Origin: Escherichia coli
Lineage (GTDB): Bacteria; Pseudomonadota; Gammaproteobacteria; Enterobacterales; Enterobacteriaceae
Length of the DNA stretch: 64,000 nucleotides
Strand: one strand, 5' to 3'
Assembly (NCBI RefSeq): GCF_045037415.1
Contig: NZ_CP173438.1
Within the stretch, counting starts at the first letter, position 1, and each line of letters starts with the position of its first letter. Positions 25,355 to 28,853 of the stretch are shown here, piece by piece. The notes beneath the pieces were generated by a model. It did no database searches. It saw only the letters and a program-made list of their open reading frames with translations, and had not been told where the DNA came from. The translations under genes were made by a program, and so were the position numbers.

Positions 25355-26688
25355 TTATGGGAAACCTGAATGAAACAGAAAAGTGGGAAGAAAATATCTA
25401 TCAACTGGAGACATCAGATCCGGTTCTGGGTGGTGCAGACGGGATATCAAATCGAGCCCCCCGGCAACTGGCAAACAGGACGAAATGGCTGAAGAAGAAA
25501 ACGGAGGAAGCCGCACAGTCACTGGCTGAACACGTACGTTCCCGTAACCACCCGGACGCGACACTGACAGCTAAGGGGTTCACCCAACTGAGCAGTGCCA
25601 CCAACAGCACCTCTGAAACGCTGGCCGCCACACCAAAAGCGGTCAAGGCTGCATACGACCTGGCAGCCGGCAAGGCGCCTGCCAGCCACACTCACCCGTG
25701 GAGTCAGATAACGGGAGTGCCTGCGGCTTCACTGACGGCAAAAGGCACCGTACAACTGAGCAGCGCCACGGACAGTCAATCAGAAACTGAGGCTGCCACG
25801 CCGAAGGCGGTCAAGGCTGCATACGACCTTGCAGCCGGCAAGGCGCCCGTCAGCCACACTCACCCGTGGAGTCAGATAACGGGAGTGCCTGCTGCCTCGC
25901 TGACGGCAAAAGGCACCGTACAATTGAGCAGTGCCATCAACAGCACGTCTGAAATACTGGCCGCCACACCGAAAGCGGTCAAGGCTGCATACGATCTGGC
26001 AAACGGAAAACAACCGGCAGATGCCACGCTCACTGCTCTGGCAGGACTTGCCACTGCAGCAGATCGGTTGCCTTATTTTACCGGAGCAGACCGCGCAGAG
26101 CTGGCAACCCTTACAGCTATTGGTCGCGCTATTATCGCTAAGGGCAGTATAAAAGATGTCCTCAATTACCTTGGTTTAGGAGAAGGCTCGGCGCTACCCG
26201 TTGGTGTGCCTGTTCCGTGGCCCACCGCCACACCGCCAGCAGGCTGGTTAAAGTGCGACGGGCGCGCCTTTACAAAAGAACAATATCCTGTTCTGGCCAG
26301 AGTCTACCCGACCCTCCGTCTTCCCGATTTACGCGGTGAGTTTATCCGTGGATGGGACGACGGGCGCAAAGTTGATACAGGACGTAAGTTGCTGTCCGCA
26401 CAAGGGGCAACGCTGTTAAGAACAGCAATGCTGGATTATTATAACCAGGACACTACGGGAACCTCGGGGATAGTCGGCATGGGATTCAACAATGAAGATT
26501 CCATTACAGACCTTCGTGAGGGCAGCTTTAAAATGCCGGACGGGACAACATTCAGCGATCCTGTCGTGGCAATGTCAGACAATGGTATGCAGGCTACTAT
26601 TCTGACCTCTATCAGAAGCGGGTATGCGAAGGGTATCACTGTCAGACCCCGTAGCATTGCACTTAATTACATTGTGAGGGCAGTTTAA
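25351..26688 (+). CDS. tail fibre protein (currently expressed variant)
   Basis: 445-aa ORF with tail-fibre repeats; its C-terminal ~170 aa form a cassette homologous to two downstream inverted cassettes. Confidence 0.8.
   Translation: MIMGNLNETEKWEENIYQLETSDPVLGGADGISNRAPRQLANRTKWLKKKTEEAAQSLAEHVRSRNHPDATLTAKGFTQLSSATNSTSETLAATPKAVKAAYDLAAGKAPASHTHPWSQITGVPAASLTAKGTVQLSSATDSQSETEAATPKAVKAAYDLAAGKAPVSHTHPWSQITGVPAASLTAKGTVQLSSAINSTSEILAATPKAVKAAYDLANGKQPADATLTALAGLATAADRLPYFTGADRAELATLTAIGRAIIAKGSIKDVLNYLGLGEGSALPVGVPVPWPTATPPAGWLKCDGRAFTKEQYPVLARVYPTLRLPDLRGEFIRGWDDGRKVDTGRKLLSAQGATLLRTAMLDYYNQDTTGTSGIVGMGFNNEDSITDLREGSFKMPDGTTFSDPVVAMSDNGMQATILTSIRSGYAKGITVRPRSIALNYIVRAV
25567..26040 (+). 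repeat. three tandem ~41-aa coding repeats in tail fibre gene
   Basis: TAKG..QLSSA..S.SE..AATPKAVKAAYDLAAGKAP.SHTHPWSQITGVPAASL repeated three times. Confidence 0.7.
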
Positions 26689-27302
26689 TGAGTAACACTG
26701 CAGTTCTGGATGAAAACGGTATCGCCACTGTAGCGGGCGATATCACTGTATATCACTATGACGAGGAAACCCGGGAATACACCTCATCCTCTGTGGAGTA
26801 TCTCGCCCTTGGGGTGGGTACTCCGGCACATTCGTGCGCCGATGCACCGCCGGAAGCAATTTCGGGTTACGTGGTTTGCCGGACTGCCACGCTGAACGGG
26901 TGGGAGCATGTGCCTGATCACCGCGGCGAGACGGTATACAGCACGGAGAACGGTAACCCCGTTCTGATTACCCAACCGGGTGATTACCCGGCGGACACCA
27001 CCACAAAACAGCCAGCCACGCCATGGGATACCTGGAACGGTGAGGCGTGGGTAACCGATACTGAACGGCAGCGAGCCGCAGAACTGGAGGTTGCCAGACA
27101 GCAACGCCAGCAACGGGTGAAACAGGCGATGGCGTCCGTCGATCTTATCAACCTCAAACTGCGTGCTGGTCGCAGTCTGAAACCAGAAGAAACGGCAAAA
27201 CTGAACGCCGTGCTGGATTATATCGACGAGCTGAACGCACTGGATATCAGCAAGGCACCTGAAATCAGCTGGCCGGAAGCGCCACTGGCGCTTGCCGGCT
27301 GA
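26688..27302 (+). CDS. tail fibre assembly protein (Tfa / Mu U-like)
   Basis: 204-aa ORF; start overlaps fibre stop (TAATG); typical Tfa position. Confidence 0.8.
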   Translation: MSNTAVLDENGIATVAGDITVYHYDEETREYTSSSVEYLALGVGTPAHSCADAPPEAISGYVVCRTATLNGWEHVPDHRGETVYSTENGNPVLITQPGDYPADTTTKQPATPWDTWNGEAWVTDTERQRAAELEVARQQRQQRVKQAMASVDLINLKLRAGRSLKPEETAKLNAVLDYIDELNALDISKAPEISWPEAPLALAG

Positions 27303-27308
27303 ACGGTA

Positions 27309-27770
27309 TCACGCCGCCCTCACGATATAGTTAAATGCGATATTGCGGGGGCGAGCTGATACATAAGCCCACCAGTCATATCTTTGTGCACCTTTAGAGG
27401 ATGCATCAAATATCCACTTTTTGCCATTTAAGACCCCCAGTTGATTAGAGGTTAAAGCGTCACCAAATCCGTATTGTGTAGAGCCGAGCGAACTGATATC
27501 TCCGGTATCATTATCATCAAAACCGGATACGATAGTCCCTTCCTGAAATGAAAGTAGCGCACGCCCGGTATCAACCTTGCGACCACCGTCCCATCCACGG
27601 ATAAACTCACCGCGCAAATCGGGAAGACGGAGGGTCGGGTAGACTCTGACCAGAACAGGATATTGTTCTTTGGTGAACGTAGCTCCGTTGCACTGTAACC
27701 AGCCTGCTGGCGGTGTGGCGGTGGGCCATGGAACCGGTACACCAACAGGCAATGCAGAGCCTTCCCCCAA
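27309..27770 (-). CDS. silent alternative tail-fibre C-terminal cassette (no ATG, no promoter)
   Basis: Begins GEGSALPVGVPVPWPTATPPAGW..., near-identical to residues inside the expressed fibre; ends ...NIAFNYIVRAA like the expressed gene; inverted orientation. Confidence 0.7.
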   Translation of the reverse strand: MGEGSALPVGVPVPWPTATPPAGWLQCNGATFTKEQYPVLVRVYPTLRLPDLRGEFIRGWDGGRKVDTGRALLSFQEGTIVSGFDDNDTGDISSLGSTQYGFGDALTSNQLGVLNGKKWIFDASSKGAQRYDWWAYVSARPRNIAFNYIVRAA

Positions 27771-27780
27771 ACCAACGTTT

Positions 27781-28209
27781 CTATGCCGCCCTTACGATGT
27801 AATTAAACGCAATGTTACGGGGACGAATGGTCACATAATTAACCCCATCGCCTCGCGAAGGACCTGCAAATGAAAAACGGGAGAATCCAGGTTGGTTGTC
27901 AACGATTTGGTCATAGTTATTGATTGAATGACCAGACCCAATGTCAAAATTACCTGCGTAATGAGAAAAACTTGTACCATCCTGCCGTGAAAGCAGATCG
28001 CGCCCTGTATCCACTTTTCGCCCGTCGTCCCATCCACGGATAAACTCACCGCGTAAATCGGGAAGACGGAGGGTCGGGTAGACTCTGGCCAGAACAGGAT
28101 ATTGTTCTTTTGTAAAGGCGCGCCCGTCGCACTTTAACCAGCCTGCTGGCGGTGTGGCAGTGGGCCACGGAACAGGTACACCAACGGGCAGCGCCGAGCC
28201 TTCCCCCAA
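27781..28209 (-). CDS. second silent alternative tail-fibre C-terminal cassette
   Basis: Same conserved 5' block (~70 aa identical to expressed fibre) and conserved C-terminal end, variable middle; TGA stop just upstream in frame. Confidence 0.7.
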   Translation of the reverse strand: MGEGSALPVGVPVPWPTATPPAGWLKCDGRAFTKEQYPVLARVYPTLRLPDLRGEFIRGWDDGRKVDTGRDLLSRQDGTSFSHYAGNFDIGSGHSINNYDQIVDNQPGFSRFSFAGPSRGDGVNYVTIRPRNIAFNYIVRAA

Positions 28210-28280
28210 ACCAACGTTTATCTCTCAAATCCTCCCCACATTATCTCAGTACTTTAACCACTCAAAAGGGAGTATTTTTA

Positions 28281-28853
28281 ATGCTGATTGGCTACATACG
28301 TGTGTCAACAAATGACCAAAACACAGATTTGCAACGCAATGCATTAATGTGCGCAGGATGTGAACAGATTTTTGAGGACAAAATGAGCGGAACCAAGTCG
28401 GAACGACCAGGCCTGAAACGCGCTTTAAAGTGCCTTAAAAGAGGGGATACATTGGTGGTCTGGAAGCTGGATCGGTTGGGTAGAAGAATGAAACACCTCA
28501 TTGCTCTCACAGAAGAGCTACGCGCAAAAGGTGTCAATTTTCGCAGTCTGACGGATTCAATCGATACCAGCACTCCGATGGGAAGGTTCTTTTTTCATAT
28601 GATGGGTGCACTGGCAGAAATGGAGCGTGAACTGATAGTTGAGCGCACGCTGGCTGGACTGGCTGCTGCGCGAGCACAAGGAAGAGTTGGAGGACGTCGC
28701 CCGAAACTGACGAAGGAGCAGCATGAGCAGATCGCAAGATTGCTCCAGAAAGGGTATGACAGAAAGCGGCTGGCAATTATCTATGATATTGGACTGTCAA
28801 CGATCTACCGCTATCACCCTGTTGGGACTGTCATAACGCAACCTGAAATGTAA
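28281..28853 (+). CDS. DNA invertase, serine recombinase of the Gin/Pin/Hin family
   Basis: ORF-track 28152..28853 trimmed to MLIGYIRVSTNDQNTDLQRNAL start with AAGGGAG RBS; 190 aa. Confidence 0.9.
   Translation: MLIGYIRVSTNDQNTDLQRNALMCAGCEQIFEDKMSGTKSERPGLKRALKCLKRGDTLVVWKLDRLGRRMKHLIALTEELRAKGVNFRSLTDSIDTSTPMGRFFFHMMGALAEMERELIVERTLAGLAAARAQGRVGGRRPKLTKEQHEQIARLLQKGYDRKRLAIIYDIGLSTIYRYHPVGTVITQPEM

Follow-up and report, generated by a model that had tools for sequence, protein, structure and literature searches.

In a 64,000-nucleotide stretch of Escherichia coli DNA (NCBI RefSeq assembly GCF_045037415.1, contig NZ_CP173438.1; here called the window), we analyzed a 3.5-kb region that carries a tail-fiber gene, one tail-fiber assembly (Tfa) gene, two inverted copies of the fiber 3' end, and a DNA invertase gene. 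Our results make it highly probable that this region is an active Gin/Min-type site-specific multiple-inversion switch with three alternative fiber tips and four isoforms. Invertase-driven switching of tail fibers has been textbook knowledge since Mu, P1, and p15B. Many complete E. coli ST131 genomes, including those of EC958 and JJ1887, carry the 3.5-kb region in their chromosomes with 100% identity, and the locus is prophage Phi2 of ST131 strain EC958. Because the kind of switch is classical and this locus was published as invertible in 2014, the novelty is low. The additions made here are incremental: a crossover site that we call site B, four isoforms across hundreds of genomes, and a conserved architecture with a single Tfa gene.

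Tip cassettes, crossover sites, and invertase

The tail-fiber gene begins with a constant 5' part, Sc, which runs from the ATG to the crossover core (25357..26172, plus strand) and was delimited from its open reading frame (ORF), three matches to PF03406, and its internal repeats. Sc was fixed and identical in all four isoforms, as judged by an exact match of the left segment. A repeat search and Pfam placed three 168-nt repeats, each corresponding to Phage_fiber_2 (PF03406), at 25562-26065 on the plus strand. The later copies are 83% and 65% identical to the first, and the number of repeats varies among relatives, as in phage 503046 and in P1-like fibers with much longer constant parts.

In the window, Sc is continued by the expressed tip cassette Sv1 (26173..26688, plus strand; 171 amino acids [aa]), a tail-collar domain (PF07484, Collar) with a long variable insert. 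Its stop codon overlaps the start of the Tfa gene (TAATG). Two silent, start-less tips follow on the minus strand. Sv2' (27309..27773; 154 aa) was recognized by its match to phrog_523, a tail collar fiber family, and by natural Sc-Sv2 fusions; it is convergent with Tfa, and inversion between the crossover sites A and B described below makes it the 3' end of an Sv2 fiber gene. Sv3' (27781..28212; 143 aa) was recognized from its ORF, a profile search, alignment, and natural junctions. An NCBIfam search of the fiber, the cassettes, and Tfa returned no useful family.

The cassettes repeat one another far beyond chance. The block at 26168-26396 pairs as an inverted repeat with 27989-28217 (94% complementary) and with 27550-27778 (85%), in each case over 229 nt. 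The two silent copies repeat each other directly (86% over 246 nt), and the cassette 3' ends are joined by a 35-nt inverted repeat. In alignments of DNA and of protein, the homology sets in exactly at TTGGTTT(A/G)GG(A/G)GAAGG. All three cassettes have in common a 76-aa block, GLGEGSALPVGVPVPWP...LPDLRGEFIRGWD, which carries the Pfam tail-collar domain, and an end that reads RPR(N/S)IA(F/L)NYIVRA(A/V). Their middles (53, 64, and 81 aa) are unrelated to one another. Both silent cassettes are in frame from the crossover site, where they begin, and the TTG "starts" assigned to them were rejected as artifacts of the ORF finder.

The initial annotation, which was made from the sequence without database searches, had described an almost identical 5' block of ~210 bp, a conserved NIAFNYIVRA end, divergent middles, and inverted cassettes lacking an ATG. 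The shared block was recovered with a length of 229 nt rather than ~210, and the end is indeed conserved, but Sv1 terminates in SIALNYIVRAV. The divergence of the middles and the absence of an ATG from the silent cassettes were both confirmed. It had also allowed that the silent cassettes might carry disabling mutations; both proved to be free of internal stops.

The hix/gix-like TTGGTTT sites that had been proposed to flank the cassettes could be located as three 26-bp crossover sites. Alignment placed site A, TCCTCAATTACC TT GGTTTAGGAGAA, at 26159-26184 on the plus strand, within the fiber ORF; site B, GGCATAGAAACG TT GGTTTGGGGGAA, at 27762-27787 on the minus strand; and site C, GAGAGATAAACG TT GGTTTGGGGGAA, at 28201-28226, also on the minus strand. 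All three have the 2-bp core TT (AA on the other strand), at 26171-26172, 27774-27775, and 28213-28214, respectively. Site A has the opposite orientation to B and C, which are mutual direct repeats and are the same at the core and throughout the right arm. Sites A and C are exactly the Phi2_5prime and Phi2_3prime sites of Forde et al. 2014, and both fit the consensus table published in that paper (PMC4134206).

With three sites, one of which (A) is inverted, there are two invertible units and therefore exactly four arrangements. Segment X (26173-27773, 1601 bp) holds Sv1, Tfa, and Sv2', and segment Y (27776-28212, 437 bp) holds Sv3'. Since the core TT supplies bases 2 and 3 of a Leu codon, every fusion is in frame: Sc-Sv1, Sc-Sv2, and Sc-Sv3 all translate through, reading ...NYLGLGEG... 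at the junction.

The ends of the silent cassettes run into the sites. Their last codons (..VRAA) and stop lie within the left arm of the next 26-bp site (27781-27787 and 27309-27311), an overlap that is also found in arrays L014 and L015. In site B, the left arm includes the final codons of Sv3' and its TAG stop (GCG GCA TAG AAACG, followed by the core TT and GG...). The same bases are thus constrained by the protein C terminus and by the recombination site, and the position of the stop and last codons inside a site arm probably contributes to the conservation of the cassette C terminus at the DNA level. The cassette-end bases GTGAGGGC also give a Shine-Dalgarno-like GAGG 5' of the Tfa start.

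The Gin-family invertase that had been noted after the cassettes is a 190-aa serine DNA invertase of the Gin/Din family (28281..28853, plus strand). Its gene lies outside the invertible DNA and is co-oriented with the fiber operon. The protein matched phrog_125 (E 1e-94) and, over residues 1-181, the crystal structures of Mu Gin (PDB 3UJ3/4M6F; E ~1e-93). It is ~76-78% identical to Mu Gin (76% by tblastn), and the Hin DNA-binding domain matches residues 139-184. The N terminus is MLIGYIRVSTNDQ, with the catalytic Ser9 in YIRVSTNDQ, and the size, Ser9, and C-terminal helix-turn-helix are those of a Din/Gin-family recombinase. Switching is probably catalyzed by this adjoining invertase; other ST131 invertases (Phi1) could act in trans (PMC4134206).

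From site C into the 5' region of the invertase gene, the window aligned with Mu gixR-gin at 83% identity over 282 nt, and two 15-mers of the form G-N13-C (28302-28316 and 28351-28365) are positionally conserved with Mu gin. The Fis enhancer of gin and hin is located in the 5' region of the invertase gene. The interval 28302..28365 (plus strand), within the invertase 5' coding region, is a candidate recombinational (Fis) enhancer on the basis of this alignment and a motif scan, and the switch may be Fis dependent. A scan with the strict Fis consensus GNNYRNNWNNYRNNC gave a single site and no two sites at a 48-bp spacing.

Four isoforms in complete genomes

The state of the array in the window is isoform a (X+Y+), in which Sc-Sv1 and Tfa are co-transcribed. 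Isoform b (X-Y+) has Sc-Sv2 with Tfa antisense and is found in genome AR_0055 (L002). Isoform c (Y-X+) has Sc-Sv3, then an untranslated Sv1 and co-oriented Tfa, as in genomes AR_0086 (L003) and 1447 (L016), and isoform d (Y-X-) has Sc-Sv3, then Sv2, with Tfa antisense, as in genome E41-1 (L004). We built the Sc-Sv2 and Sc-Sv3 junctions in silico at the 2-bp core and searched for them in 5,426 complete E. coli genomes. Both were found at 100% identity over their full 720 and 687 nt in complete ST131 genomes, and matches with at least 80% coverage came from 202 genomes for Sc-Sv2 and 157 for Sc-Sv3. The rearranged isoforms that the initial annotation had proposed to look for are present, with all four arrangements among the complete genomes, and its expectation that a simple inversion would also flip the Tfa gene was borne out by the two of the four (b and d) in which Tfa is antisense.

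The b, c, and d loci that we fetched are exact permutations of the window. The left flank, X, Y, and the right flank were exact string matches, the core dinucleotide sat between the segments, the invertase gene was identical, and all of these loci lay at aroA-serC. Natural isoform junctions fall at site A, and the isoforms in AR_0055, AR_0086, and E41-1 require recombination at site B. Although many polymorphisms distinguish the three copies of the 229-nt block, no chimeric block was seen in the isoforms examined, and the exchange is thus confined to ~7 bp (26171-26177) at the core. Exact core-level exchange of this kind is what conservative site-specific recombination, rather than RecA, leaves behind.

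Isolates within a single sequencing project can differ in state, which we read as rapid switching. In one project, isolates 4/1-1 and 2/0 have isoform a and 4/0 has isoform c; in another, R3 has isoform a, Sc-Sv2 is found in R12 and R14, and Sc-Sv3 is found in R7. Across the complete genomes, the junction counts were 326 for Sc-Sv1 (a plus c), 202 for Sc-Sv2 (b plus d), 157 for Sc-Sv3 (c plus d), and 185 for the Sv3 end joined to the Sv1 start (b plus c). Each junction query takes in two isoforms because the search merges co-linear pieces that lie close together and matches the 229-nt block twice. Solving these sums, we infer approximately 256 genomes with isoform a, 115 with b, 70 with c, and 87 with d; the numbers can be solved or approximate only, as a 1589-nt query meant for isoform c also matched isoform a at 86%. 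The rows of a fifth search, sampled at even spacing, stood in the ratio 9:4:4:3, in the same order as the solved counts. On the basis of the solved counts and the sampled rows, all four states are common in nature, each in approximately 65-250 genomes.

Inversion at this locus has been reported before. The Phi2 locus of EC958 (Forde et al. 2014, PMC4134206) is the same locus, to which the window is 100% identical, and the PacBio reads of EC958 yielded an alternative contig in which 2067 bp between sites A and C were inverted; this 2067-bp segment corresponds to X plus Y. The authors attribute the switching to DNA-invertase tail-fiber switching, citing Sandmeier 1994, and the mirror image presented in their legend comes with a cognate minor tail fiber gene (PMC4134206). 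The text, Table 3, and legend of that paper give two sites and contain no site B, four isoforms, or single Tfa (PMC4134206). In the ST131 "Bone" isolates, rearranged fiber genes were seen and confirmed by PCR, and their impact was called unclear (bioRxiv 10.1101/2022.05.07.487787); the "Entero_P88" record deposited with that preprint includes the right end of the Phi2 prophage. Programmed prophage tail-fiber inversions have also been catalogued more generally (PMC9881135).

Public annotation handles the rearranged loci unevenly. For isoforms b, c, and d (AR_0055, AR_0086, E41-1, and 1447), RefSeq/PGAP labels the fused fiber gene "incomplete/pseudo", PGAP calls GTG-started pieces of the silent cassettes as proteins, and some collar-tip proteins carry the name "integrase" in public databases.

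In the mechanism that we propose, the serine invertase would pair site A with an inverted partner, B or C, and exchange strands at the TT core, and successive inversions of X and Y would generate isoforms a, b, c, and d. Each fusion gives the fiber another variable insert within the conserved collar scaffold, and the insert is presumably the receptor-binding part. Because switching occurs in the prophage state, a lysogen population would release virions of differing host specificity, and the switch would change host range.

Could the inverted cassettes instead be decayed remnants of a Mu-G-like segment that has lost its second Tfa and no longer switches? The single Tfa here, as opposed to the mirror-image Sv-Tfa / Tfa'-Sv' of P2-like relatives, would fit such a history, as would the PGAP label "incomplete" on the cassettes. 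However, Sv2' and Sv3' are intact in-frame ORFs, hundreds of genomes hold the four isoforms as exact permutations, inversion within one culture has been reported for EC958 (PMC4134206), and the one-Tfa layout is kept in arrays of 2, 3, and 9 cassettes. Decay is extremely improbable and is already refuted by the natural isoforms. A further explanation is that RecA-dependent homologous recombination between the 229-bp inverted repeats, and not the invertase, rearranges the locus, and at 229 nt and 85-94% identity the repeats are long enough as a substrate. Against this, each block polymorphism remains with the variable part to which it belongs in every isoform examined, X and Y are 100% identical to the window throughout with the exchange falling within ~7 bp at the core of a Gin-type site, and an intact Gin homologue adjoins the array. 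We therefore regard a RecA-dependent origin as very improbable; confinement of the exchange to the 2-bp core excludes it together with decay.

The array has also been drawn, for EC958 Phi2, as a simple two-site switch like the G segment, with A×C inversion only, a 2067-bp segment, and two alleles, and Table 3 and the Figure 1 legend of that report give only 5' and 3' sites and a mirror image (PMC4134206). Yet site B matches site C at the core and right arm, and isoforms b and c are common even though they are unreachable from A×C alone, which leaves the two-site scheme with as little credence as decay. Multiple inversion among three sites remains the reading that we favor.

A single Tfa gene for three tips

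Tfa (26688..27302, plus strand; 204 aa) is the sole tail-fiber assembly gene of the array and lies in X beside Sv1, between the expressed and the silent cassettes, just as the initial annotation had placed it. It was identified by its matches to Caudo_TAP (E 8e-27) and phrog_105 (E 3e-87) and by a two-domain alignment with Mu U and other Tfa proteins; a PDB sequence search with Tfa gave no match.

Relatives with 2, 3, or 9 cassettes all keep exactly one Tfa in the same layout, and the single Tfa is therefore not a mark of decay. Phage 503046 has Sc-Sv1-Tfa and one different convergent cassette (two cassettes in all), with an invertase 100% identical to that of the window, and Klebsiella phage KP12 has two cassettes and one Tfa in the same layout. 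The IncY P1-like plasmids p64EVA-6 (E. coli) and INF277 plasmid 3 (Klebsiella pneumoniae) carry nine cassettes and one 203-aa Tfa each; eight crossover sites in each array matched the pattern, and the ninth lies at the Sc junction. Their Tfa is in a segment of the form Sv-Tfa> <Sv', and the two arrays are mutual permutations in which Tfa is co-oriented with the fiber gene in one and opposed to it in the other. A P7-like plasmid whose array was reported to be 99% identical to p15B min has a single tfaE (PMC5786510).

Comparison of tips and Tfa proteins bears on how one Tfa might be used. The N-terminal halves of class I Tfa proteins (from the window, the IncY arrays, pro483, 500465-1, and L017) are 57-79% identical to one another, and the variable inserts of the tips beside them are only ~25-30% alike. 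The tip ..DLGFDASRVVPTANEN is 95-100% identical whether it occurs next to a Tfa gene (pS143-4 and phage SKA5) or as a bare cassette (IncY arrays), and the class-II Tfa of pS143-4 and SKA5 is only 30% identical to the IncY array Tfa in its N-terminal half. In another Mu-like prophage, an Sv2-like tip (85% identical) directly precedes its own class-I Tfa. These data suggest that Tfa recognizes the conserved collar and C terminus rather than the variable insert, and with such recognition one Tfa could serve all tips.

Several points weigh against the locus being a working switch among three host-range tips. The genome counts are indirect, nearby pieces being merged by the search, and an assembled genome represents one majority state per isolate and gives no switching rate. 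The binding of different receptors by the tips is presumed from knowledge of the family. Sv2 can never be co-oriented with Tfa in this array, and since an Sv2-like tip has its own Tfa elsewhere, such tips may need a chaperone. Finally, a sigma-70 promoter and terminator scan of 25300-29200 found neither a promoter that could drive Tfa independently nor a terminator in the invertible region; the scan covered sigma-70-like promoters only, and phage late-activator-dependent promoters were outside its reach. Read-through from the host genes serC-aroA into the array was considered as a source of transcription and rejected, as it is blocked by an intrinsic terminator after aroA (~29040-29075, minus strand).

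We see an even chance that the single Tfa is a generic chaperone of the collar and C terminus and that bare tips assemble at least partly without a co-oriented Tfa. The convergent tip would then work without Tfa in cis, as is argued by its being intact in all five arrays even though it is never co-oriented with Tfa. It is rather unlikely, by comparison, that every tip strictly needs Tfa, with b and d as fiber-defective "off" states, Sv2 never functional, and only Sv1 and Sv3 productive. Such a need would agree with the direct position of Sv2-like and other collar tips before Tfa in non-array phages, with the lack of an independent Tfa promoter in the sigma-70-like scan, and with isoform a, in which Tfa is co-oriented, being the most frequent. 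However, an intact ORF for the Tfa-convergent cassette in 5/5 arrays (E. coli and Klebsiella) is hard to square with a useless tip, and the excess of isoform a weighs little, because orientation frequencies in lysogens are not selected for fiber function. More doubtful still is an orientation-dependent use of Tfa, in which bare tips would fold alone and a co-oriented Tfa would remain on the fiber in the role of adaptor or adhesin that has been reported for Mu U.

Related switches and genomic setting

The window array and Min-type arrays have in common one constant fiber 5' part, several start-less 3' cassettes at 26-bp sites, and a Din-family invertase beside the array. The Min multiple-inversion system of p15B was reportedly described by Sandmeier, Iida, and Arber in 1990-92, and p15B has 6 sites and 240 isomers. 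The window has more than two sites, more than two isomers, a constant 5' part, and homology to Min-type arrays. The invertase of the IncY arrays of p64EVA-6 and INF277 plasmid 3 has 84% identity to that of the window, and their Tfa has 55-56%. The sites of these arrays read ..AAAACG TT GGTTTRGGGGAA, and in cassette starts, cassette ends, and site arms the arrays agree with the window. Bare cassettes on P1-like and other plasmids, the IncY arrays among them, match the variable part of Sv3 at 96% identity. The systems differ in size and setting: 3 sites, 3 tips, and 4 isoforms in the window versus 9 sites and cassettes in the two IncY plasmids, and a transposable Mu/BcepMu-like prophage in the one case versus a P1-like plasmid for Min arrays. 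Given the one-Tfa layout in the larger arrays, the window is the smallest Min-type array, with one X-type and one single-cassette segment. The link of the IncY arrays to p15B itself is indirect and goes through the report of 99% identity (PMC5786510).

The suggestion of a Min/shufflon-like multiple inversion in the initial annotation therefore stands as far as Min is concerned, with the homologous nine-cassette IncY arrays and their one Tfa as support, but the likeness to a shufflon is one of analogy only, the enzyme of the R64 shufflon being a tyrosine recombinase. That system (Rci), which acts on 19-bp sfx sites and varies a pilus adhesin, is like the window in logic only, in that multiple inversions yield alternative 3' ends of one gene (pilV). 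The only recombinase present here is the serine invertase, in place of a tyrosine recombinase on sfx repeats.

The Mu G segment resembles the array in its right-end position after baseplate genes, in site structure with a 2-bp core, and in the order Sc, segment, invertase and their orientations. However, its two sites flank a mirror-image arrangement of two complete Sv-U pairs, whereas the window has three sites, three tips, and one Tfa and so lacks the exactly two sites and two convergent Sv-Tfa pairs of a G-type segment. Moreover, the tail-collar tips of the window (PF07484) have no relationship to the Mu S/S' tips. The e14 P segment with Pin and the P2-like switches of pro483, 500465-1, and SKA5 share Din-family invertases and collar-type tips with the window, and their ~200-aa Tfa proteins are 51-60% identical to the window Tfa. 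Unlike the window, they have two sites and an Sv-Tfa / Tfa'-Sv' arrangement in which each tip has its own chaperone.

On the 92.6-kb plasmid pS143-4 (NZ_OY757108.1, 5357-6429), the invertase protein is 99.5% identical to that of the window, site C is identical, and the variable part of an Sv3 cassette is ~96% identical, and this module is joined to a classical two-Tfa mirror-image segment; the match points to a recent module exchange between a phage-plasmid and a Mu-like prophage. Three E. coli drafts (L017-L019) hold a second, true Mu-like prophage family at a different chromosomal site in each genome, with a short 252-aa fiber that has an Sv2-like tip, a mirror-image Tfa/Tfa' segment, and no invertase gene before the prophage end. 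The P1-like phage vB_EcoM-673R5 has the same type of array but is full of frameshifts and was replaced by the cleaner plasmid examples. An Sv2-like fiber in Xenorhabdus is an isolated gene beside IS1 and was set aside as uninformative.

The array lies at the right end of a Mu/BcepMu-like prophage. On its 5' side are the late-control D, baseplate V, W/gp25, J, and I/gp48 genes, and on the right it adjoins the host genes aroA and serC. Phage PhiKM (PQ738613.1), from uropathogenic E. coli, is 99.5% identical to the prophage and is classified as a Bcepmuvirus. Its assembly breaks within the common 229-bp block and continues into unrelated early genes (PQ738613.1 6001-6953), a break that may reflect mixed segment orientations in the sequenced DNA. 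In the window, aroA (minus strand, 29109-30393) is split into the ORFs 29332-30393 and 29109-29441 by a 1-nt insertion at ~29369 relative to other ST131 genomes, which have an intact 1284-nt gene; the split is either an assembly error or a genuine pseudogene in this strain.

Phi2 is a three-site, four-isoform element and not a two-allele one, which matters for annotating and assembling several hundred ST131 genomes. The public complete genomes amount to a natural experiment in which all four isoforms are populated, and the locus offers a minimal, chromosomally fixed model of a Min-type array. It also raises a chaperone question, how one Tfa deals with several tips while being reversed in half of the states, that is relevant to host-range engineering in phages and tailocins. 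If Tfa is used in an orientation-dependent manner, the locus would make four distinct fibers (Sv1 with Tfa, Sv2 alone, Sv3 with Tfa, and Sv3 alone), and larger Min-type arrays would double their repertoire. More generally, a single generic chaperone would on this reading serve many unrelated receptor-binding inserts through the conserved collar and C terminus.

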